A stretch of 64,000 nt of DNA from contig CAZAZU010000001.1 in assembly GCA_964490105.1 (NCBI GenBank), positions 155,440 through 219,439 on the forward strand. Direction: 5' to 3'. The DNA is from an uncultured Gammaproteobacteria bacterium. Lineage in GTDB: Bacteria; Patescibacteriota; Microgenomatia; Levybacterales; UBA12049. The translations under genes and the position numbers were made by a program. Below the pieces are notes generated by a model that ran no database searches, was not told where the DNA came from, and was given only the letters and a program-made list of their open reading frames with translations. This document shows positions 1,339 through 38,887 of the stretch, piece after piece (the stretch's first letter is position 1; each line of letters begins with the position of its first letter).

Positions 1339-3594
1339 ATGGTCGATTATGGTACGCGTTCGAGAAGACGTAGAACAAGGCTAAGGACCCGAAGCGGACC
1401 GCGCCTTCCGAACAAAATTGTCCTCTATTCTAAGCTTTCCCGCTATGCTCTCATCGCACTAGTTGGGGGAATTATTCTTATGGTTTTAATGTTCTTCTGG
1501 TTCAGTCGTGATCTTCCTGAGCCGGGAAAACTAATCGAAGCTCAGGCTGAAAATTCCACAAGAATTTATGATAGGAATGATATCCCTCTTTATTCCGTAT
1601 ATGAAGATGTAAACAGAACATATGTTGAGCTGGATGAAATTCCAAAAGACCTACAGCAGGCAACAATCGCGATTGAGGATAAGAATTTCTATAAAAATAA
1701 AGGATTTTCTATTACGGGTTATTTCAGGGGACTTGTAATAGACCCGATTTTTAGACGCCGAGTTACAGGAGGCTCGACTATAACTCAGCAGCTTGTTAAA
1801 AATGTTTTGCTTACTTCAGAAAGATCACTTCCTAGAAAAGTAAAAGAATTAGTTCTTTCAATCCAGGTTGATAAAAGATATTCGAAAGAAGAAATTCTTG
1901 AAATGTATTTAAATGACGTTCCGTACGGAGGAACTGCCATAGGAGTTGAGGCAGCATCAGAAACTTATTTTGGTAAAAAGGTTACTGAGCTAAATCTTGC
2001 CCAGTCGGCACTTCTTGCCGGTCTTCCGCAAAGTCCTAGTGCTTACTCCCCTTTCTCAGGAAATGATTATTATATCGGGCGAAGTGAGCAAGTTCTAAAG
2101 AGCATGCGAGAACAGGGTTACATTAATAAAGATGAAGAAAAGAAGGCGTTAGCGGAAATTAAGAAGATGAAATTTACTCAAAGAGAATCAACATCCATGA
2201 AAGCTCCGCATTTTGTTATTTATGTAAAGCAAATCTTGGCTTCTCAGTTTGGCGAAGCAGCTGTTGAAACAGGCGGGCTTCAGGTAAAAACCACTCTTGA
2301 TTATGAGCTTCAGAAAAAATCAGAAGATATAGTTAAGGAAGAAATTGAAAAGCTTAAAGGATTTCGCGTTGGAAATGGAGCTGCGATGGTAAGTGACCCT
2401 AAAACTGGTGAGGTTCTAGCTATGGTAGGAAGTAAAGATTATTTTGACGAAAAAGGAGACGGAAATTTTAACGTTGCTTTAGCAAATAGACAGCCTGGAT
2501 CATCTTTAAAGCCTATTGTTTATGCTGCTGCTTTTGAAAAAGGGTATACGCCTTCAACCATGCTTATGGATGTAAAAACAGATTTTCCAAATGGAAGCGG
2601 CGGACTATACTCGCCTGTTAATTATGATGGAAAATTTAGAGGACCAGTTCAGGTAAGATTTGCTCTTGGAAATTCTCTTAATATTCCCGCTGTAAAAATG
2701 TTAGCGCGCGTAGGGCTTTCGGACGTTATGGAAAAAGGTTATGAAATGGGGCTTGATAACTGGGAGCCGACAGCCGCGAATATGCAAAACGTAGGGCTCT
2801 CTCTTGTTCTTGGAGGACGCGAAGTTTCTCTAATGGACGAAATAACGGCATATAGTGTATTTGCAAATAAAGGCGTAAAGCAAGAACCTCTAACGATTCT
2901 TGAGGTAAAAGATAATAAGGGAAAAGTTCTATATAAATATAAAGAGAAAAAAGGACAAAGAGTTCTATCTGAAGAAATCGCTTTCTTGATTTCCCACATT
3001 CTTCTTGATAATAATGCGCGGTCTGACGCTTTTGGAGCGAGTTCTGCACTGAACATTCCTGGGGTAGCTGTAAAAACAGGAACAACGGATGAGAAAAGAG
3101 ATAATTGGACAATTGGGTATACACCGACAGTTGTAGCAGGAGTTTGGGTTGGAAATAATGATAATAGTCCTATGAATCCTGCAATAGCATCAGGCGTAAC
3201 TGGAGCCTCACCTATTTGGAGAAGGATAATGCTTGAGGCAATTGAGGTAAAGAAAAAAGAAGAATTTGAAAAACCGGAAAATGTGATTGCAGTTCAAGTT
3301 GACACCGTAGGAGGAGGAATGCCTACTTCTGGAAAACCAACTAGATCTGAATATTTTGTAAAGGGCACTGAGCCAACTAGCGAATCATCAATTTATAGAA
3401 AGAAAGATGACAAGGTTTATATTTGGATTCGAGAATCAGATCCGGTATCAACTGACGGAAAAAATCTTTGGCAAGAAGGAATAGATAAATGGGTAGAAGA
3501 ATTTCATAAAGATGATTCGCTGTATCATCCTCCTTCTGAAGTAACAAATCAGGAAAGTAATAATCCCCAAAGTCCTACTCCTACTTCACAGTAG
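1339..3594 (+). CDS. class A penicillin-binding protein (transglycosylase/transpeptidase)
   Basis: N-terminal TM; GT51 motif EDKNFYKNKGF; transpeptidase SxxK (SSLKP) and KTG (KTGTT) motifs. Confidence 0.9.
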   Translation: MVDYGTRSRRRRTRLRTRSGPRLPNKIVLYSKLSRYALIALVGGIILMVLMFFWFSRDLPEPGKLIEAQAENSTRIYDRNDIPLYSVYEDVNRTYVELDEIPKDLQQATIAIEDKNFYKNKGFSITGYFRGLVIDPIFRRRVTGGSTITQQLVKNVLLTSERSLPRKVKELVLSIQVDKRYSKEEILEMYLNDVPYGGTAIGVEAASETYFGKKVTELNLAQSALLAGLPQSPSAYSPFSGNDYYIGRSEQVLKSMREQGYINKDEEKKALAEIKKMKFTQRESTSMKAPHFVIYVKQILASQFGEAAVETGGLQVKTTLDYELQKKSEDIVKEEIEKLKGFRVGNGAAMVSDPKTGEVLAMVGSKDYFDEKGDGNFNVALANRQPGSSLKPIVYAAAFEKGYTPSTMLMDVKTDFPNGSGGLYSPVNYDGKFRGPVQVRFALGNSLNIPAVKMLARVGLSDVMEKGYEMGLDNWEPTAANMQNVGLSLVLGGREVSLMDEITAYSVFANKGVKQEPLTILEVKDNKGKVLYKYKEKKGQRVLSEEIAFLISHILLDNNARSDAFGASSALNIPGVAVKTGTTDEKRDNWTIGYTPTVVAGVWVGNNDNSPMNPAIASGVTGASPIWRRIMLEAIEVKKKEEFEKPENVIAVQVDTVGGGMPTSGKPTRSEYFVKGTEPTSESSIYRKKDDKVYIWIRESDPVSTDGKNLWQEGIDKWVEEFHKDDSLYHPPSEVTNQESNNPQSPTPTSQ

Positions 3595-5518
3595 CTTTAA
3601 ATTTTCCTGAGATAGATTTTATTGTTTGATTTCTAATTTCACTTACCTCTTCATTTGTTAAGTTTTTGTCAGTTGCCTGGTAAATGATGTGAAATGTTTT
3701 GGCGTTTTCAAATTGATCTTTAAGAGTTACTTCAGTAATTAAAAAGCTTTGAAGCTTAATTTCCTCTATTACATCTTCTGTATTAATCTCTTCGCCCAGA
3801 ACAAAAGTAATATCTTCAACAATTGGAGGAAATTTCGCTAATTGTTTGTATGCCTTTTTAAAAGTAGCATGTTTCAGTAGAGTTTCGAAAGATAATTCAA
3901 AGTCTATAATATTAGAGTTAAGTATTTCTATGTATCCAAGTTCATCATTTCCAATGTTTATATTTGCTCCCCTAGCGTCCGATCTATTTTTAAATTTATA
4001 ATTTTTAATACCCAAGTCTTCAAAAAGATTTTCTAATATTCCTTTAACTTCATAAAAGGAAATATCTTTTCTCTTTAAAATTCCAGACAGCGTCAGTCTT
4101 TCTTCTGGTAGATCATTTGTTTTTCTATAGATATTTGATAATTCAAAAATTCGAATTGATTCCCTGGTTTTATTATTTTCTAAAACCTGTAAAAGACTAG
4201 GAACCAAACTGTTTCTTAAATATTCCATATCCGAAGATAAAGGATTCTTAAGTTTTACTGCTTTTTCAATTGGGCCATCAAATAACTCCTCGGAAATTAA
4301 AGAATAGCTATATACTTCAGTAAATCCCCAGTATTTGAATGCATTTTTTACTCTTTGTTCAAGATTAAATGTATTTAAATAAGGAGTATTTTTATTATTC
4401 AAAAATCCAGGAATTATGCTCGGAAGTTTATGATATCCGTATACTCTTGCGATTTCCTCTATAATATCTTCCTCAATTAAAACTTCTGAAGCGCGAATTG
4501 TCGGTACGGTTACTTCAAGTATATCTCCCGATTTTTTAACTTTAAAATCTAATTTTTCAAGAATCTCTACAGACTTTGCCGTAGGAATCTGGACACCAAT
4601 TATTTTATTAATTTTCTTAACTGAAACTTTTATATTATTAGTTTTTGATTTATTTGGATAAATATCTAAAGTTTTTGAAATAACTTTTCCTTTAGCAATT
4701 TTTTCGTATAGTTCCACTCCCCTATTAAATGCAATCGTCATTAATTCTGGGTCTATTCCTTTCTCATTTATAATTGCGGCTTCTGTTCTTATGCCAAGAT
4801 TCATGGAGGTGTTTCTAATTTTTTTAGGATTATTATTATCAAGAAAAAATAAAATTCTTTTTGTATTATTTTGAACAACAGAATTTTTTGTTCCCATTAC
4901 TCCTAAAAGATCAATTATTTCTCCACTGCCATTGTCAGCAACTATATCTCCTCCAAGAAGTCTGTATTTTTTTCCGTCCAGCGTTGTAAGTTCTTCTCCT
5001 TCTTTAGATTCTCTTATAATCATTTTTTTAGTATTTAATAAATCGTAATCAAAGACGTGGCAAGGATGTCCGATTTCTCTCATTACATAATTTGTTACAT
5101 CGATTAAATTATTAAGACTTCTTATTCCGGACTTTTCGAGTCTTTCTTTTATTTCATTTGGACTGTCTCCAATTTCTACTTCCATTACAACTGCCATGAT
5201 CCTGTTAACTAATTTGGGATCATTTACTATTTCAATCGGGAAAGAAATATTTGCTAAAGGCGCTTTAGGAATTTTTATATCCTTAAATTTAGCAAGCGGT
5301 TTTTCTATAACAGCTCCAGCTTCTCTAGCGATAGCACGTACAGACATCAGATCAGGTCTATTAGTTGTTACTTCTATGTCATAAACCTCATCATTATTTA
5401 TTTTTTCGATTCGCTCAACTGATACACTACTTAGAGAAAGTTCGCGCGCAATTTCTTTACTCGTCGCACTTGTTGCTAAAAATTCTCTTAACCAGCTGTC
5501 TACTATTTTTATATTCAT
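3581..5518 (-). CDS. pheT: phenylalanine--tRNA ligase beta subunit (reduced form)
   Basis: 645 aa; N-term MNIKIVDSWLREFL matches PheT start, B3/B4 and B5 core present, N-terminal OB tRNA-binding and C-terminal anticodon-binding domains absent. Confidence 0.85.
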   Translation of the reverse strand: MNIKIVDSWLREFLATSATSKEIARELSLSSVSVERIEKINNDEVYDIEVTTNRPDLMSVRAIAREAGAVIEKPLAKFKDIKIPKAPLANISFPIEIVNDPKLVNRIMAVVMEVEIGDSPNEIKERLEKSGIRSLNNLIDVTNYVMREIGHPCHVFDYDLLNTKKMIIRESKEGEELTTLDGKKYRLLGGDIVADNGSGEIIDLLGVMGTKNSVVQNNTKRILFFLDNNNPKKIRNTSMNLGIRTEAAIINEKGIDPELMTIAFNRGVELYEKIAKGKVISKTLDIYPNKSKTNNIKVSVKKINKIIGVQIPTAKSVEILEKLDFKVKKSGDILEVTVPTIRASEVLIEEDIIEEIARVYGYHKLPSIIPGFLNNKNTPYLNTFNLEQRVKNAFKYWGFTEVYSYSLISEELFDGPIEKAVKLKNPLSSDMEYLRNSLVPSLLQVLENNKTRESIRIFELSNIYRKTNDLPEERLTLSGILKRKDISFYEVKGILENLFEDLGIKNYKFKNRSDARGANINIGNDELGYIEILNSNIIDFELSFETLLKHATFKKAYKQLAKFPPIVEDITFVLGEEINTEDVIEEIKLQSFLITEVTLKDQFENAKTFHIIYQATDKNLTNEEVSEIRNQTIKSISGKFKATVK

Positions 5519-5519
5519 T

Positions 5520-6554
5520 TTAAAATTGCTCTAAAAATTCTAGTTTATTACTGTAAAGTAATCTAAGATCATCGATTTCAATTCCCTCTTTCATCATGAG
5601 AACTCTTTCAACTCCCCAACCAAAAGCGAAGCCATTAAATTCTTTAGGGTCTATTCCGCAATTAATTAATACATTTGGATGAACCATTCCTGCTCCTCCC
5701 ATTTCAAGCCACCCTTCTTTACACAACTTGCATCCTTTTCCCTCACATACTCCGCAGCTTACGTCTACCTCAAAAGAAGGTTCTGTAAATTCGAAATGGT
5801 AAGGTCTGATTCTCGCACTTCTTTTTTCTCCGAAATATGATTTTACGAAATAGTCTAAAACTCCTTTTAAATTTACGATTGATAAATCTTTGTCTATCGC
5901 AAGTCCCTCAAACTGATGAAACATAGGAGTGTGTGAGACATCGGATTGGCGCCTATAGCATTTAGCGATGTTTAGCATTTTTATCGGAGGTTTGCTTTCT
6001 TGCATTTCTCTAATTTGACCACTTGAAGTATGTGGAGTTAAAAGCATTGGGCCGTATTTTTTGCTCGTAGGTGCATCAATAAAAAAAGTTTCCCAATCGT
6101 CACGGGCTGGATGACCTTCTGGGAAATTTAGAGCACCAAATGCATGCCAATCCCACTCTACCTCTGGATACCTAACTCTACTAAAACCTATTCGATCAAA
6201 GATGTCTGTAATTTCTGAAATTGCCTGAGTTATAAGATGATGATGTCCTAGTGCGGGCCTAATACCTGGATTTGTAACATCTATTCGTTCAATTTTTGCG
6301 CGTGTTTCTGTGTGCTTTGCGCCCTTTGTTTTTTCTTTAAGAGTTTCTTCAATTGTATTTTTTACTTCGTTTGCTAAAACTCCGATTTCTTTTCTTCTCT
6401 CCGGGTCTATTTTAGGCAATTGTTTTAGAAGTAGCGTTAACTGACCGCTTCTACCTAAGAATTCTAATTTAATTTCTTCTAATTCCTTTGGATCCTCAGT
6501 GTCGAGGATTAAGCTCATGGCATTATTTTTAATGTTAATTAGTTCATTTTCCAT
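5520..6554 (-). CDS. pheS: phenylalanine--tRNA ligase alpha subunit
   Basis: 344 aa; class II aaRS core, FPEGHPARD motif; directly upstream of pheT. Confidence 0.9.
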   Translation of the reverse strand: MENELINIKNNAMSLILDTEDPKELEEIKLEFLGRSGQLTLLLKQLPKIDPERRKEIGVLANEVKNTIEETLKEKTKGAKHTETRAKIERIDVTNPGIRPALGHHHLITQAISEITDIFDRIGFSRVRYPEVEWDWHAFGALNFPEGHPARDDWETFFIDAPTSKKYGPMLLTPHTSSGQIREMQESKPPIKMLNIAKCYRRQSDVSHTPMFHQFEGLAIDKDLSIVNLKGVLDYFVKSYFGEKRSARIRPYHFEFTEPSFEVDVSCGVCEGKGCKLCKEGWLEMGGAGMVHPNVLINCGIDPKEFNGFAFGWGVERVLMMKEGIEIDDLRLLYSNKLEFLEQF

Positions 6555-6600
6555 CTAGCTTAAGTATATCGAATTTGAGGGCAAATTGGGAGAATGCGGT

Positions 6601-7146
6601 TTACCTGCCTCTACCTATGAATCTTGAGAAAATAGTTCTTCCTCTTCTAGCTTCTCTCTCTGCTTCGCCTCGAGCTTTACTAATAAGCTCAGCTGGAGAT
6701 TGATACCCAAACCTGTTTAAAAGAAGAGCTCTATTTGGTACATATATTGCTCTTGCGTGAATAACATCAATTCTGTGATCAGTTAGTCTGTAGTCTGTTC
6801 CGTCCGGTGTCGTAAGAAGAACTTTACCTGTATGAGGACCTGCGCCTAGTCTTATGGATGGTGAACCTTTATGCAACGCTTCAAGGGAAAGCGTCTCATT
6901 TGTTAATGTTCTGTAGGGAGCAGTAGCATGTGCTAAATTTTCCGCTACTCCTAGATTTGCATGCGCGCCTTCAACAGGATCTAGTACTCGTTCTCGAATA
7001 TTCCGGCCATTTGCTAATTGACCAGCTTCTATTAAGCCATCCATTCTAGCGAGTGATTGTTCTGCTGCAGTCCTAATTTCTGCAGTAGTAGGTCGATATC
7101 TGTCAGTCATGTGCGAGATATTACCATCAATTAGATTTTGTGTCAA
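6601..7146 (-). CDS. hypothetical protein, GC-shifted cassette I gene C (N-term MTxxxxDxxIxHxT shared with 12906..13271)
   Basis: 181 aa uninterrupted ORF in a locally GC-richer segment; start abuts stop of 7147..7413 (translational coupling). Confidence 0.5.
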   Translation of the reverse strand: MTQNLIDGNISHMTDRYRPTTAEIRTAAEQSLARMDGLIEAGQLANGRNIRERVLDPVEGAHANLGVAENLAHATAPYRTLTNETLSLEALHKGSPSIRLGAGPHTGKVLLTTPDGTDYRLTDHRIDVIHARAIYVPNRALLLNRFGYQSPAELISKARGEAEREARRGRTIFSRFIGRGR

Positions 7147-7413
7147 TTACGCTGCGATTTCTCTCTGAGCGGGCGATTCTCTTCTTGCTTCCATTTCAGC
7201 TCTTCTTTGATCCATCACTAATCCCTGCCATTCAGCCTCTTGTCTGTGCCTAATTATTCTTTGAGCTCTTCCTTTTTCTGCTTCAAAAAGTTTTAATGTC
7301 GACGGATTAGTAGACAAAACAACAAGTTTTCTTTCAGGTGCGATCCCAGCATGAGGATCTGCAATTGGCAGTGCAGAATAATCTAAATGTAATCCAGTAT
7401 TTCTTTCTGTCAT
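7147..7413 (-). CDS. hypothetical small protein, cassette I gene B
   Basis: 88 aa; strong SD AAGGGAGGTGA upstream of ATG; weak similarity to 13264..13497 (VVxxS...TL...EKxxAQ). Confidence 0.5.
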   Translation of the reverse strand: MTERNTGLHLDYSALPIADPHAGIAPERKLVVLSTNPSTLKLFEAEKGRAQRIIRHRQEAEWQGLVMDQRRAEMEARRESPAQREIAA

Positions 7414-7463
7414 AATTAATCACCTCCCTTCGACGTTTCTCAGGGTAAACTTTTTAAAACCAC

Positions 7464-7489
7464 AAAAAAACCTCCCATCTTGGGAGGCT
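7464..7489 (-). terminator. rho-independent terminator (minus strand), conserved copy 1
   Basis: minus-strand GCCTCCCA-AGA-TGGGAGG followed by TTTTTTT; near-identical copy at 13548..13572. Confidence 0.6.
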
Positions 7490-7619
7490 TATTGCCTTTT
7501 TATTTTTGGCAATACGTTACCTCCCGGAAGGGAAAGTAAAGTAAAACCCGAAATTTATAATCTTTATCATTTATTTATGTTAATAAATTATTTTCAATTA
7601 CGCAAATAACACTTCTATA

Positions 7620-8138
7620 TTAAGCTGATTCTTGTATAGGGCCTGCGGGTTGAGCAGTCTGTTCTGGTGAATTCGATCTTTTAAAATCATCAAGAGCTCT
7701 TCTTAAGCTCCCTATCCAAATTCCCCTAGCGTTAATGACTTCCATGTCGCTGGGAGTTTCTTCTCCAAGAACTGGAAGGCCTGCATGTTCCCCCGCAGCA
7801 TGAGTATATGTTCTAAGGATGCCATCAGTGGAAAGATATGTCCCAATCATATCTGACCGCAGAATATTTGCGGTTGTTTTCTCTCCATCAATAATTACCT
7901 CTTCTGTTGGAAATGCACCCATTTCACCAAGGCCTACAGCTACTTTCCTGAGTCTATCTCTAATCCGGCTCGCAGCATATGAGACGTCAGTTTCTACTAA
8001 TTCAGATGCGTTTTTTAATCCACTCTCTGCTCTATTTATGCCCTTTTTAAGTTGCTCAGGTGAAAGGGATGGTGCTGGACCGCCAAATTCCCATTCTCCC
8101 CATTGTTCTGGTTGTGCTTGTTCTCTTCCTCTAGTCAT
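7620..8138 (-). CDS. hypothetical protein, cassette I gene A
   Basis: 172 aa, GC-shifted, acidic/Gly-Pro-rich; C-terminal region loosely resembles 13711..14379 (MEV(I/L)...SL..AL..K.S). Confidence 0.5.
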   Translation of the reverse strand: MTRGREQAQPEQWGEWEFGGPAPSLSPEQLKKGINRAESGLKNASELVETDVSYAASRIRDRLRKVAVGLGEMGAFPTEEVIIDGEKTTANILRSDMIGTYLSTDGILRTYTHAAGEHAGLPVLGEETPSDMEVINARGIWIGSLRRALDDFKRSNSPEQTAQPAGPIQESA

Positions 8139-8171: not shown

Positions 8172-8453
8172 TCAATTTAGTCTTCTTAGTGTTACGGTGT
8201 GGCCGATTTGAACAACTTCGTTATTCTTTGGAGTGCTAATAACACGTCCCTCCGATATAAGATGCTTTAATTGTCTAATTTTTCTATCCAAATCGCTAAG
8301 TTCGAATCGCGCTCCTTTATAATACCCATTTTCAGAAAGGTCTCCCATGTTTCTTGCCTTGGTTAAGGTCGCCACAACCTGAGGACGTTTTTCTTCAGCT
8401 TCTCTTAAATCGGACTTTAACTTTTCAAATCCTTCTTTAGTGAAAAATGCCAT
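8172..8453 (-). CDS. greA: transcription elongation factor GreA, N-terminal coiled-coil domain only (3'-truncated)
   Basis: 93 aa; GDLSENGYY motif and alignment to GreA residues 1-95; ORF stops where the GreA C-terminal FKBP-like domain should start. Confidence 0.7.
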   Translation of the reverse strand: MAFFTKEGFEKLKSDLREAEEKRPQVVATLTKARNMGDLSENGYYKGARFELSDLDRKIRQLKHLISEGRVISTPKNNEVVQIGHTVTLRRLN

Positions 8454-12321: not shown

Positions 12322-12395
12322 GGAGTTGTAGCTCAGTTGGTTAGAGCGCAGCATTGACATTGCTGAGGTCACAGGTTCGAATCCTGTCAGCTCCA
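12322..12395 (+). tRNA. tRNA-Val(GAC)
   Basis: manual cloverleaf: acceptor GGAGUUG/CAGCUCC, D-arm GCUCAGUUGGUUAGAGC, anticodon loop UUGACAU, T-loop UUCGAAU. Confidence 0.85.
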
Positions 12396-12410
12396 CAAAC
12401 AATTTTTGGA

Positions 12411-12671
12411 TTATCTTACTTCTTCGAAAGTTCTCCATCCTTGATCGTTTCTGGCAACATCTTTTACCTGTACTCCAAAGTTACCTCCGTATGTGCGTCT
12501 ATAATAAGACGGTTTGTCTTTAGGAGCACCGGATTCTATTTGATCGTAACGTAGAGCACTAAAAACTAAAGGTGCGCCAGCTCTCTCAGTTCCTGTATGA
12601 GAAAATCTGCTTGGTATTCTAAAGCTTGCTTCTGCTCCCGTTATTTGTCCTTCTTTTATCATCATAATCAC
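12411..12671 (-). CDS. hypothetical protein (GC-shifted island II)
   Basis: 86 aa; strong SD AAGGGGGTGA. Confidence 0.4.
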   Translation of the reverse strand: MIMMIKEGQITGAEASFRIPSRFSHTGTERAGAPLVFSALRYDQIESGAPKDKPSYYRRTYGGNFGVQVKDVARNDQGWRTFEEVR

Positions 12672-12693
12672 CCCCTTTTTAATTTAAATATTT

Positions 12694-12903
12694 TTACCTG
12701 CCTCTCTGCCCGCTATTTCTAATTTTTCTATTTGATGTTCCCGGAACGGGCCCCCGGCTTCTTCTTTCCTGCCCTGGTTGAATCACTCTTCCATTTGGCC
12801 CAATCGTTAAATCTCCCACGAATCTTTGTTGCGGTCTGGGTCTGTCAAACCCTTGTCTGCTGCTAAAGCCTGGATCTTGACCAAATCTATTACTTCCTTC
12901 CAT
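12694..12903 (-). CDS. hypothetical Gly/Arg/Pro-rich low-complexity protein
   Basis: 69 aa; very strong SD GGAGGAGGTGA; composition low complexity so could be non-functional. Confidence 0.3.
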   Translation of the reverse strand: MEGSNRFGQDPGFSSRQGFDRPRPQQRFVGDLTIGPNGRVIQPGQERRSRGPVPGTSNRKIRNSGQRGR

Positions 12904-12905
12904 AT

Positions 12906-13271
12906 TTATTCACCTCCTCCAGCTGTTAGCTCTTCTAATAATGTTCCTGACGAAAAAACTACATGATTTGGAAAAACTTGTGCTCCCGATTGGGCAATTC
13001 CATATCGATCTTTGTCTCTCGCAACTTGTTCAGCAAGCCAGTCAACGGCAGCGACTTGATCCGGTGGGTTTCCTCTCTCAACCTTAAAGCTTAATCTAGG
13101 AGTTTCTTCTCCTTCTCTAAGCCAAACTTCTCGAGTTATAAATGTATCTCCAAGAAAACGGACTTCAAATTGGCCTCCTCTGTTAACCTTTCCATATAGT
13201 TTAAAAAGAGTTGGTTTGACTGGCTCTTTGGTCACATGATGTATTGATGAATCGTAGGCTTCGTTAGTCAT
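12906..13271 (-). CDS. hypothetical protein, cassette II gene C (paralog of 6601..7146 N-terminus)
   Basis: 121 aa; N-term MTNEAYDSSIHHVT vs MTQNLIDGNISHMT; start overlaps stop of upstream gene by 8 nt. Confidence 0.5.
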   Translation of the reverse strand: MTNEAYDSSIHHVTKEPVKPTLFKLYGKVNRGGQFEVRFLGDTFITREVWLREGEETPRLSFKVERGNPPDQVAAVDWLAEQVARDKDRYGIAQSGAQVFPNHVVFSSGTLLEELTAGGGE

Positions 13272-13497
13272 AATTTCCTTCTCCCATCGGCGAATAAACA
13301 GCAGACATCAGTTGAGCTTTTTCTCTTGGATGTACAGGCATTACTAATGTTTCGTTCCCATGTTGTGAATCAAATACCACATTTATTTCAGAAACCTTTC
13401 CTCCAAGAGTCGAATTTATTGTCCCGCTAGTACCTGCTACTTCCGTTGGAATCATAAATCCTAAATTTCTATAATTTTCTTTCGCCATTGAGTCCAT
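13264..13497 (-). CDS. hypothetical small protein, cassette II gene B
   Basis: 77 aa; SD AAAGGAAAA; same position relative to conserved terminator as 7147..7413. Confidence 0.5.
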   Translation of the reverse strand: MDSMAKENYRNLGFMIPTEVAGTSGTINSTLGGKVSEINVVFDSQHGNETLVMPVHPREKAQLMSAVYSPMGEGNYD

Positions 13498-13547
13498 AAT
13501 AATTTTCCTTTCAAAGTCGGAATCGCTTTGAATTCTGACTAAACCAC

Positions 13548-13572
13548 AAAAAAACCTCCCGTCTGGGAGGCT
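13548..13572 (-). terminator. rho-independent terminator (minus strand), conserved copy 2
   Basis: aaaccacaaaaaaaCCTCCCgtctGGGAGGct, near-identical to 7458..7489. Confidence 0.6.
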
Positions 13573-13710
13573 GTCCTGGTTGCGTATTTGTCTTACTTAC
13601 GCGTCAGACTTACCCCCCTTAAGGGATTTAAGAATGACGAGAATAAGATTTTTTATCGCTTGCATGAAAAGTATAATAGCAATTTAATATTTACTGTGTC
13701 AAGAGGAGTT

Positions 13711-14387: not shown

Positions 14388-15284
14388 TCACAGGCCTTTT
14401 AAGAAATCAAGCGTTTTTTGCTGCCTGATAATTGAGGCTAAAAGATATTTATTTGCCCTAAGACTTTCCTTCTCTTGGGGAGGGGCATTTTCTATAGTTT
14501 TTTCAATATCAGCTTCTTCTGCTGTAATTTTTTCTGATTCAGCTATTTTCTGAAGTATAAATTCAAGCTTTAAGTCAGTGTTTGCTTTTACAGCTGATTC
14601 GGCTCTTAAATCTTCAGCTGTTTTTTTAGTTGAAGCCAGATATTGATCCAAATTCATACCTAATTTCTTAATTTCTTCAAGAGTCTGAGTTAAAAGCCTA
14701 TCTACTTCTCTTTCTACCAAAACCTGAGGTACCGTAACCTTTACGTTTTCCAGAAGAGATTTTACGATCTCGTCAAAGCGAGGCGCTTCTTGTTCTTTTC
14801 CAGGAACTACGATCTTGCTCTTAGCGGTAATTTTTTTAACTTCATCTTTATAGTTTCCAAGTTCAACTACTGGAGCCTCACAAGTTATAGCATGAAATTC
14901 CCAGTTTTTTCCTTCTTCTAAAGCTTCATCTACATGAATTCTAGGATCAATTATGGGCTTTACATTATTATCTTTAACAGCCTGTGCATATACAGCAGGA
15001 AGAAGATGTCTGACGACCTCATCTCTAATCTTTGCTTTATCAAGACTACCTTCAACTAGGTTTTTAGGAGCTTTTCCTTTCCTGAAGCCTGGAAGATTGG
15101 TATTTTTTGCCATCTCTTCTACGACAAGATCCCAAACTACCTTAGCTTTATCCCATGGAATAGTAAGTCTGAATTCTATGGTGCCATCTGAAGTTTTTAA
15201 GAATGGTTTTTTAACTGCTTCAGAATCTGCTGCTGCAACTGGTGTTTTAACTTTTGATTTAACTGTTTTAGTTTTTCCTGCCAT
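14388..15284 (-). CDS. tig: trigger factor-like chaperone (short, no PPIase domain)
   Basis: GFRKGKAP ribosome-binding signature; ORF-track N-terminal extension to 15368 overlaps a tRNA, so start moved to internal Met. Confidence 0.7.
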   Translation of the reverse strand: MAGKTKTVKSKVKTPVAAADSEAVKKPFLKTSDGTIEFRLTIPWDKAKVVWDLVVEEMAKNTNLPGFRKGKAPKNLVEGSLDKAKIRDEVVRHLLPAVYAQAVKDNNVKPIIDPRIHVDEALEEGKNWEFHAITCEAPVVELGNYKDEVKKITAKSKIVVPGKEQEAPRFDEIVKSLLENVKVTVPQVLVEREVDRLLTQTLEEIKKLGMNLDQYLASTKKTAEDLRAESAVKANTDLKLEFILQKIAESEKITAEEADIEKTIENAPPQEKESLRANKYLLASIIRQQKTLDFLKGL

Positions 15285-15301
15285 ATTTATTCCCCTTAGT
15301 G

Positions 15302-15382
15302 TGCGGATGAGAGGACTCGAACCCCCATGCCTTACGGCACATGGTCCTAAACCATGCGCGTCTACCATTCCGCCACATCCGC
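15302..15382 (-). tRNA. tRNA-Leu(TAG)
   Basis: type II tRNA with long variable arm; anticodon loop UUUAGGA; acceptor GCGGAUG/CAUCCGC. Confidence 0.85.
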
Positions 15383-38862: not shown

Positions 38863-38887
38863 ACCCCGCTTGTGCGGGGTTTTTTAT
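38863..38887 (+). terminator. rho-independent terminator of hsp20
   Basis: AACCCCGC-TTGT-GCGGGGTT followed by TTTTTATTATTTT. Confidence 0.7.

Follow-up and report, generated by a model that had tools for sequence, protein, structure and literature searches.

Two probable leader-peptide transcription attenuators upstream of pheST and of a small-gene cluster in a Patescibacteria-type genome

Results

Two minus-strand loci share a terminator module and a complementary box

The present analysis concerns two similar intergenic elements (copy I and copy II) in a 64,000-nt stretch of DNA (the window) from contig CAZAZU010000001.1 of assembly GCA_964490105.1. All genes at both loci are located on the minus strand, and along this strand the loci follow a common order: stop codon of an upstream gene (gene A), promoter-like hexamers, a tiny open reading frame (ORF), a G-rich box, a variable hairpin, a CCUCCC/GGGAGG terminator followed by seven uridines (U7), a spacer of about 35-40 nt, a Shine-Dalgarno sequence (SD) and the first gene of the next operon (gene B). 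Both elements are very probably transcription attenuators of the ribosome-mediated (leader-peptide) kind, each located in the 5' leader of the operon that follows. Copy I most likely senses phenylalanine and controls o88-o181-pheS-pheT. For copy II, the amino acids sensed are most likely the branched-chain ones, and the genes under its control encode four small proteins.

A preliminary description had pointed out two similarities between these regions, a terminator module and a second box, and alignment confirmed both. On the minus strand, the terminator module reads AGCCTCCCAAGATGGGAGGTTTTTTTGTGGTTT at 7457-7489 and AGCCTCCCAGACGGGAGGTTTTTTTGTGGTTT at 13541-13572. The two versions agree in the stem arms, the U7 run and GTGGTTT and differ in the loop only. 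The GC-rich stems (10 bp in copy I, 8 bp in copy II) are each followed by U7, and the assignment as canonical intrinsic terminators on this strand was correct. In the window, the 20-mer GGGAGGTTTTTTTGTGGTTT has exactly two occurrences (0.02 expected), and the same is true for the pattern CCTCCC-N3-6-GGGAGGTTTTT (0 expected). In the second box (7517-7536 and 13610-13629), 14 of 20 bases are identical. It had been placed about 20 nt beyond the terminator, but the measured distances are 27 nt (copy I) and 37 nt (copy II), and on the minus strand the box is located 5' of the terminator. The box (GGGAGGU or GGGGGGU) is complementary to the 5' arm of the terminator, and in our model it is both the end of the leader ORF and the strand pairing with this arm.

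A covariance model built only from 11 type-I leaders (copy I orthologs) recognized copy II with 45.9 bits (E of about 6e-9), and besides the two copies it gave no match above 18.7 bits in the window. A finder that made no assumption on terminator sequence (any hairpin with a U-run and an upstream complement of its 5' arm) selected exactly the two copies among the six strict intrinsic terminators of the window and made no pick in 10 shuffles. The hairpin alone is generic. About 30 genomes from unrelated phyla, Azospirillum and Deinococcus among them, contain the same 25 specified bases, and since neither box nor tiny ORF accompanies the hairpin there, it is not diagnostic by itself.

Each copy carries a promoter-like sequence, a short ORF and a terminator

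The features of copy I are as follows:

7577-7605 (-): putative promoter; -35 TTGCGT (7600-7605), 17-nt spacer, -10 TAACAT (7577-7582)
7517-7570 (-): putative leader ORF of 17 codons, MIKIINFGFYFTFPSGR plus stop (TAA 7517-7519), without SD
7538-7552 (-): regulatory codons F7-G8-F9-Y10-F11, as predicted by ribosome-parking simulation
7531-7543 (-): region 1, 5' strand of helix P1 (UAC UUU ACU UUC C), overlapping the regulatory codons (RNAalifold consensus of 11 orthologs; minimum free energy structure)
7513-7525 (-): region 2, the conserved box of the preliminary description, GGGAGGUAACGUA, predicted by folding to pair with region 1 or with the terminator 5' arm
7490-7514 (-): variable hairpin UAUUGCC...GGCAAUA, stacking inside the antiterminator according to folding
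7461-7490 (-): intrinsic terminator; region 3 AGCCUCCCA (7481-7489), loop, region 4 UGGGAGGUU (7469-7477), U7 (7464-7470)
3581-7428 (-): operon; SD GGGAGGTGA (7420-7428), o88 (7147-7413), o181 (6601-7146), pheS (5520-6554), pheT (3581-5518), PheS and PheT being identified by Pfam

The corresponding features of copy II are:

13673-13702 (-): promoter; TTGACA, 18-nt spacer, TATTAT; 11/12 consensus matches, extended -10 TG
13597-13665 (-): putative leader ORF of 22 codons, MQAIKNLILVILKSLKGGKSDA plus stop (TAA 13597-13599), without SD
13630-13647 (-): regulatory codons L7-I8-L9-V10-I11-L12, as predicted by capture/release simulation
13591-13648 (-): long P1 helix; 5' strand 13623-13648 (Leu/Ile/Val codons to UCCC), 3' strand 13591-13618
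13548-13572 (-): intrinsic terminator; region 3 AGCCUCCC (13565-13572), loop AGAC, region 4 GGGAGGUU (13553-13560), U7 (13548-13554)
12411-13511 (-): downstream genes (cargo); SD 13503-13511, o77 (13264-13497), o121 (12906-13271), o69 (12694-12903), o86 (12411-12671)

In copy I the clustered codons are F7, F9, (Y10), F11 and F13. The reading frame of copy II passes the TAA of the box and ends at GCG TAA, which gives a peptide of 22 amino acids. The 3' strand of its P1 helix includes the box GGGGGGUAAG (13609-13618), which corresponds to region 2.

The -10 element ends 6 nt before the leader ATG in copy I and 7 nt before it in copy II, and copy I orthologs carry TAGTAT, TATTAT or TAATAT at the same spacing. 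Among 55 distinct leaders with the common layout that we collected from genomes (see below), a TAnnnT motif ends 5-9 nt before the ATG in 42, compared with 10.8% of all ATGs in the same loci, the former count being somewhat inflated since the ORF caller preferred ATGs with a -10 element. An SD-like 4-mer precedes the ATG in only one of the 55. From this arrangement, we infer that transcription begins at or beside the leader ATG and that the ORF is translated without an SD; thus, the leader ORF of copy I is probably leaderless. We also considered GGGAGG-U7-GUG as combined SD and start codon. In loci L006 and L063 the GUG shares the reading frame of the gene behind it, but in both copies of the window it opens only a frame of 2-7 codons, and the idea was dropped as a general feature.

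The spacer after terminator I (GUUUUAAAAAGUUUACCCUGAGAAACGUCGAAGGGAGG, 7429-7460, minus strand) recurs nearly unchanged after the leader of a copy II ortholog (L082, around 6472-6518), and it also resembles ACCCTGAGCGAAGTCGAGGGG in L024 (around 6420-6470). It may be a small dispersed repeat.

Mutually exclusive pairings and the predicted position of the stalled ribosome

The full-length RNAs of both copies fold as helix P1 (regulatory codons with the box), variable hairpin and terminator. When region 4 is left out, region 2 pairs with region 3 in both copies. Ribosome parking was simulated by forcing the footprint to be unpaired, codon by codon, which is a thermodynamic and not a kinetic model. 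Since equilibrium folding with the full terminator gave a weak effect for copy II, we adopted a capture/release test that considers the state of the RNA before region 4 is transcribed. Here, region 3 was captured (P of about 1.0) as long as the ribosome stood no further than F11 (copy I) or L12 (copy II). It was released from codon 13 onward (K13 in copy II), where the footprint extends to the box. In the presence of the complete terminator, the terminator probability of copy I fell from 0.99 to 0.07 only for a ribosome at codons 7-10.

This geometry is not confined to the two copies. A boundary between captured and released states at the end of the codon run was obtained for 49 of 49 leaders compared with 23 of 294 composition-matched shuffles, and it was also found in 57 of 63 independent metagenome leaders among the matches listed. 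The six codons before the boundary, which was defined by folding, hold the runs (NFGFYF, LILVIL, NCCCCL, CSTTTT, IIITII, ALNLLL and others), and at least three identical residues were present in this six-codon sensing window in 37 of 49 family leaders. For the mutually exclusive helices, 92% of the cells were paired computationally versus 38-55% in slid controls.

These observations suggest the following mechanism. In the tiny ORF, codons for the sensed amino acid form a run (F-G-F-Y-F in copy I, L-I-L-V-I-L in copy II). The codons of this run would at the same time form region 1, the 5' strand of a hairpin that has the G-rich box (region 2) as its 3' strand. With abundant charged tRNA, the ribosome should reach the end of the ORF and cover region 2, the 3:4 hairpin (CCUCCC/GGGAGG-U7) would form and transcription would stop ahead of the first gene. 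Under shortage of the cognate charged tRNA, the ribosome would stall on the run and melt region 1, so that region 2 stays free. Free region 2 could then pair with region 3 across the variable hairpin (antiterminator), the terminator would be blocked and the polymerase would enter the operon. The starvation response itself is what we infer from this scheme.

Leaders stay with their downstream operons and vary synonymously

Homologs of o88 with 59-77% identity led to related contigs, all of which carry a leader upstream of the operon. The leader peptide is conserved in these orthologs (MIGKLNFGFYFTSLTGR, MIKKLNFGFYFTSPTGR, MIKGLNFGFYFTYPTGR), and the codons of the run vary synonymously (TTC GGG TTT, TTT GGA TTC, TTT GGT TTT), which argues for selection on the translated product. 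The gene order of the window recurs in L005 and L016. In L006 and L007, a PDT+ACT gene (pheA) comes directly after the leader, and homologs of o88 and o181 and then pheS follow. Thus, the regulated genes of copy I match the sensed amino acid (pheS and pheT, plus pheA in L006). The gene upstream of the leader is o172 in the window and a UPRTase gene in orthologous loci. Since the upstream gene changes and the leader remains with the downstream operon, the element appears to belong to the latter, which is related to phenylalanine.

These data bear on an earlier assignment of the hairpin as 3' terminator of gene A. According to this explanation, hairpin and U7 would simply end the upstream transcript (o172 or the DUF5660 gene), and box and SD would be separate signals for the next gene. 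A strong canonical terminator downstream of gene A is indeed what it predicts, but a promoter (11/12 matches in copy II) and a conserved ORF are located between the stop of gene A and the terminator. Moreover, the upstream gene varies among orthologous loci, the box lies 5' of the terminator and is complementary to its 5' arm, and the same terminator never occurs with the box in other phyla. We consider this explanation unlikely and prefer an attenuator in the 5' leader of the operon of gene B. The hairpin could still stop read-through from gene A, without being that gene's own terminator.

Copy II has orthologs of its own (type II), with the peptides MQAVKNLILVILKSLKGGKSDA, MVEKIKNLILVLINSLRGGKSDA, MFRSLSLIIVLLNSRRGAKFDA and MFRNVNLIIVLLNSREGAKFDA. 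Leu and Ile codons interchange among them, and the branched-chain character and a C-terminal G(G/A)K(S/F)DA are kept. The nucleotide sequence of the type-II leader is nearly identical across genomes. In many genomes the locus is syntenic, with trigger factor, DUF5660, leader, small genes, HD, DUF5665, ThrRS, IF3, L35, L20, GreA-N and, further on, the Phe leader and pheST. Syntenic orthologs of each copy reach genomes with only 47-51% identity of PheS and ThrRS.

Two minor observations were made at the copy II locus. In L035, the position of copy II is occupied by three tandem attenuators (3300-5460, minus strand; Leu/Ile/Val-like, Leu and Phe/Tyr), with one small orphan gene behind each. In the window, genes for tRNA-Val(GAC) (12322-12396, plus strand) and tRNA-Leu(TAG) (15301-15382, minus strand) flank the cassette behind the Leu/Ile/Val leader. 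The single Val codon of this leader is GUC, and its match to the flanking tRNA-Val(GAC) may be coincidence.

The suggestion of a recent duplication, or of a mobile repeat without function of its own, gains some support from the near-identical 33-nt terminator module and from the recurrence of the copy I spacer after the type-II leader in L082. Nevertheless, the similarity is limited to the functional modules, with different peptides, variable hairpins, spacers and cargo in the two copies. For each of them, separate syntenic orthologs exist at the low PheS/ThrRS identities given above, and a mere repeat would have to preserve a reading frame together with two alternative pairings. Since no homology was found between the proteins of cassettes I and II, a simple duplicated cassette is ruled out, and the more general form of the proposal is very improbable. 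The other suggestion made on first inspection, that the conservation reflects a functional regulatory RNA, is supported by our data.

The complementary regions change in step

Structure prediction and a search for covariation had been recommended as a check. The former gave the alternative pairings described above, and the latter showed that regions 2, 3 and 4 change in step across five non-canonical cores:

Region 3/4 CCUCCG/CGGAGG; region 2 GCGGAGG
Region 3/4 CCCGCC/GGCGGG; region 2 GGCGGG
Region 3/4 CCUCCU/AGGAGG; region 2 AGGAGG
Region 3/4 CCCUCC/GGAGGG; region 2 GGAGGG
Region 3/4 CCGCCCC/GGGGCGG; region 2 GGGGUGG

In the variable hairpin of the copy I type, three pairs show compensatory changes.

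A promoter and a terminator at this spacing would also fit genes encoding trans-acting small RNAs with a length of about 105-120 nt, acting alone or besides attenuation, with the ORF being either incidental or a functional micro-peptide. The near-identity of type-II leaders at the nucleotide level is in line with such a role, and for the rhizobial trp attenuator, small RNAs derived from the attenuator as well as trans-acting leader peptides are documented. On the other hand, synonymous variation occurs inside a conserved peptide, the codon runs differ according to what the next gene encodes, the switch geometry follows the run, and no Rfam small RNA family was found at threshold. A small RNA as the explanation of the elements is therefore improbable, and such a role is compatible with attenuation, which remains our preferred interpretation.

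The two copies belong to a larger family of leaders

Scanning one genome per species for the terminator string yielded 72 loci. About 30 of them belong to unrelated phyla and have neither box nor tiny ORF, and 42 are AT-rich contigs of the Candidate Phyla Radiation (CPR) type with the full layout. The latter comprise Daviesbacteria, Levybacteria, Gottesmanbacteria, "Patescibacteria group" and metagenome-assembled genomes labelled "uncultured Gammaproteobacteria". In these last (TPA_asm; L016, L017, L018, L060, L062, L082 and others), PheS and ThrRS are 89-93% identical to those of the window and the gene order is the same; their Gammaproteobacteria label is almost certainly wrong. To the 55 distinct leaders from genomes, a metagenome scan in which the box was required added at least 63 further distinct leaders from at least 120 stretches, including Met, Val and Tyr types. 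When public genomes and metagenomes are combined, more than 100 distinct leaders follow the same layout, and both copies belong to a large and apparently undescribed leader family of Patescibacteria (CPR).

We identified the genes downstream of the family leaders by Pfam and compared them with the codon runs:

FGFYF: PDT/ACT (pheA), pheST
FWFYF: DAHP synthase
KKTTKTT, TKKTAKAT: amino-acid kinase, probably aspartokinase
CCC: PALP (cysK-like) enzyme and Cys/Met-metabolism PLP enzyme
IIITII: IleRS
TTTTT: ThrRS
LPVPAQDIP (LPVPxxxP): amino-acid kinase, probably glutamate 5-kinase
SPSS: HAD + 2-hydroxyacid dehydrogenase fusion, probably SerB-SerA

A seeming mismatch in L070, where an Ile leader is located some distance before a PDT gene, was resolved when the covariance model found a second, Phe-type leader directly before this gene (TTGACA-17-TATAAT, 9 nt, MQKSGKTFLFFFTFA).

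As a classifier of distant types, the type-I covariance model was rejected. It finds all CPR leaders, but it also scores the bare terminators of other phyla with 26-35 bits, since these are identical by selection, and alignment A3 was consequently not used for covariation.

Two groups of loci deserve separate mention. In L054, L071, L080, L128 and L144, hydrophobic ORFs of 30-34 codons (e.g., MSKMIAIDLQRVESLVVLLIVLLTGAFLGGLFRF) stop immediately upstream of this box and terminator and may represent either long Leu/Val leaders or genuine small membrane proteins. In Azospirillum and relatives (L025, L029, L041, L050, L052, L064, L069, L086), the identical terminator string lies in a GC-rich region that is conserved in several Azospirillum genomes upstream of a gene encoding MAKR.... 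This region is unrelated to the CPR leaders and may represent a conserved 5' untranslated region or a small RNA.

The downstream orphan proteins are poor in the sensed amino acid

For the seven cargo proteins, searches of Pfam, NCBIfam, PADLOC and PHROGs gave no family match; o181 showed a weak hint of DUF5818 below the cut-off. Predicted structures were too poor for a fold search, with pLDDT values of 56 for o181 (6-sequence alignment) and 44 for o121 (single sequence). The genes behind the type-II leader are small and variable, an o69-like protein being the most recurrent (L017, L018, L060, L082). Between the Phe leader and pheS, the small genes differ even among genomes with 90-93% identical PheS (o88 and o181; o83 or o79; o68; o85 alone; window versus L004, L005, L016, L017, L060, L062), which points to a rapid exchange of cargo at one fixed site.

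The amino acid composition of the cargo was as follows:

Phe-leader cargo: Phe 1.2%; Leu+Ile+Val 22.7%
Type-II cargo: Phe 4.3%; Leu+Ile+Val 16.7%
Housekeeping proteins: Phe 4.1%; Leu+Ile+Val 23.0%

It can be seen that the depletion is reciprocal and that each cargo set is poor in the residue its own leader is predicted to sense (Fisher's test against housekeeping proteins: Phe in Phe cargo, p=2e-7; Leu+Ile+Val in type-II cargo, p=2e-6). Cargo genes have a GC content of 0.37-0.48 compared with 0.30-0.39 for housekeeping genes. A GC-rich composition as cause of the Phe depletion was ruled out, since the type-II cargo is as GC-rich with normal Phe and the Phe cargo has normal Leu+Ile+Val. Behind a Lys-type leader we found a protein of 134 amino acids without a single Lys (0/134), and for the first downstream proteins of 45 independent families, the cognate residue had a median of 0.40 times background versus 0.89 times for non-cognate residues (Wilcoxon p=1.7e-5). 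The depletion supports the specificity assignments and indicates that the orphan cargo ORFs encode real proteins, which would be made under shortage of the sensed amino acid.

Upstream of leader I, o172 (7620-8138, minus strand) is also poor in Phe (3/172). It weakly resembles o181 (E=0.02) and has a good promoter of its own (8175-8146).

Discussion

Points that weigh against the attenuator interpretation

Several points weigh against our interpretation. All support comes from sequence analysis. The promoter of copy I is weak (7/12 consensus matches), the promoter scanner makes no call there, and the inflation of the -10 count was mentioned above. If the leader were transcribed from the promoter of the upstream gene, an ORF lacking an SD might be poorly translated. 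At equilibrium, a parked ribosome barely destabilizes the terminator of copy II (0.85-0.92), and in copy I the antiterminator is favoured (0.75) without any ribosome when region 4 is removed. The model therefore relies on co-transcriptional order, which is also true of the classical attenuation model. Six of the 63 metagenome leaders among the matches listed do not switch, the 2:3 helix is invariant within type I and hence gives no covariation signal there, and L056 has a leader before AlaRS without an Ala run. The uniformity of the layout is partly due to ascertainment, since family members were collected by patterns that fix the terminator sequence. Finally, the targets of copy II carry no assigned function, so its cognate relation rests on geometry and on the Leu+Ile+Val depletion of its cargo, and some cargo is not depleted in the cognate residue.

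Relation to known systems

The mechanism proposed is of the known classical kind (trp, his, pheA, pheST). The E. coli pheST operon (pheM) has, upstream of the PheRS genes, a leader ORF rich in Phe codons together with alternative hairpins and an intrinsic terminator. Copy I shares this plan, by which, rather than by sequence, the two were compared. It differs by its leaderless-looking ORF, by the two small genes (plus pheA in a relative) before pheS and by its Patescibacteria-type host. Attenuation of pheST in gamma-proteobacteria has been described as classical (PMC1262725).

Rfam at gathering thresholds reported only tRNAs in the whole window. Under permissive settings, the only family matched by either copy was RF01859 Phe_leader (the pheA leader pheL), with 38.8 bits for copy I and 27.2 bits for copy II. 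Since both scores are below the gathering score of 55, neither copy is a member. Common to both systems are the CCC...GGGAGG box, the GCCUCCC...GGGAGGC-U terminator behind it and a Phe-rich leader, and the copy I ortholog in L006 directly precedes pheA. In contrast, the long stem of the Rfam model is largely unmatched, and the likeness is resemblance or convergence, not membership.

Multivalent branched-chain leader peptides are a property of the enterobacterial ilvGMEDA, ilvBN and leu operons. A Leu-rich attenuator peptide is reported for ilv-leu in Staphylococcus aureus (PMC5794164). Copy II has the same mix of Leu, Ile and Val codons, but the known leaders control ilv/leu biosynthetic genes, whereas copy II would control small proteins without family match. 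For Streptomyces trpS and leuS, classical attenuators have been predicted upstream of the genes (PMC1262725). Like the CPR leaders, these are leader-peptide attenuators on synthetase genes outside Proteobacteria, but they occur in another phylum, have other sequences and comprise only two specificities, with no layout common to many amino acids.

Mycobacterial leaderless short ORFs with polycysteine runs act on the ribosome-binding site and not on a terminator (Canestrari et al., bioRxiv 10.1101/834739). They resemble the present family, the sensory ORF of which would likewise be leaderless, in having a single-codon run, in forming a ribosome-directed regulon of several loci and in their Cys runs before Cys-metabolism genes, and CCC/CCCC leaders are present in the CPR family, too. 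In contrast, the CPR family has a U7 intrinsic terminator, which points to transcriptional control, and at least 12 amino acid specificities. The SDs of o88 and o77 follow the terminator at a distance of about 35-40 nt and are not part of the switching helices, so the ribosome-binding site would not be sequestered as in the mycobacterial attenuators.

One may also ask whether the leaders bind a ligand, a tRNA or a protein directly (riboswitch, T-box or RNA-binding-protein attenuator), which would make the small ORF irrelevant. Such leaders use the same terminator/antiterminator logic, and T-boxes, which are used by synthetase genes in Firmicutes (PMC1262725), also sense charged tRNA for synthetase and amino acid genes. 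Unlike the elements described here, T-boxes bind tRNA directly and have no ORF. There was no T-box match in the whole window at gathering thresholds, and neither region gave a T-box or riboswitch match even at E<=10. The sensing part measures only about 45 nt and varies in sequence with codon identity, no aptamer-like core is conserved across types, and conservation is seen at the peptide level. A binding leader is thus hardly credible.

Possible implications

Patescibacteria (CPR) account for a large part of bacterial diversity. Most of them are uncultured, and the usual view is that they possess little regulation and a limited amino acid metabolism. In the searchable literature, we found no paper connecting these bacteria (CPR, Patescibacteria or Microgenomates) with leader peptides or attenuation. 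As judged from the sequences, what appears to be new is the lineage, the common layout re-coded for many amino acids, the combination of an apparently leaderless ORF with an intrinsic terminator, and an orphan cargo that seems tuned to starvation. If our interpretation is correct, one lineage controls PheRS, IleRS, ThrRS and its remaining biosynthetic genes by one re-codable ribosome-sensing module, which would fill the role that T-boxes have in Firmicutes. Each leader would then be a label of the limiting amino acid that can be read from the sequence, providing a functional handle on dozens of orphan proteins, and depletion of the cognate residue would mark these orphans as real proteins expressed under starvation. 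Because of their compact size (about 110 nt) and modular structure, the leaders could also serve as sensors in synthetic biology.

A more speculative proposal, which we advance tentatively, goes one step further. The shared layout might represent a plug-in sensor that has been re-coded for at least 12 amino acids and that also drives fast-turning-over orphan proteins nearly without the sensed residue. These might be starvation-specific effectors in symbiotic, largely auxotrophic Patescibacteria, which would amount to a nutrient-specific stress proteome of a kind not seen before, and could serve, for instance, amino acid acquisition from the host or growth shutdown.

Other features of the window

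The ORF of trigger factor (326 amino acids, 14388-15368, minus strand) overlaps with its first approximately 22 codons the tRNA-Leu(TAG) gene (15301-15382) on the same strand. Its real start is probably the internal ATG at 15284 (MAGKTKT...), which would fit a homolog of 298 amino acids in L014. At 8172-8453 (minus strand), a protein of 93 amino acids consists of a GreA/GreB N-terminal domain alone, and relatives carry it at the same place and with the same length (93-94 amino acids). The six strict intrinsic terminators in the 64 kb include an ordinary one at 38864-38879 (plus strand), and 13 tRNA genes are scattered singly over both strands of the window.

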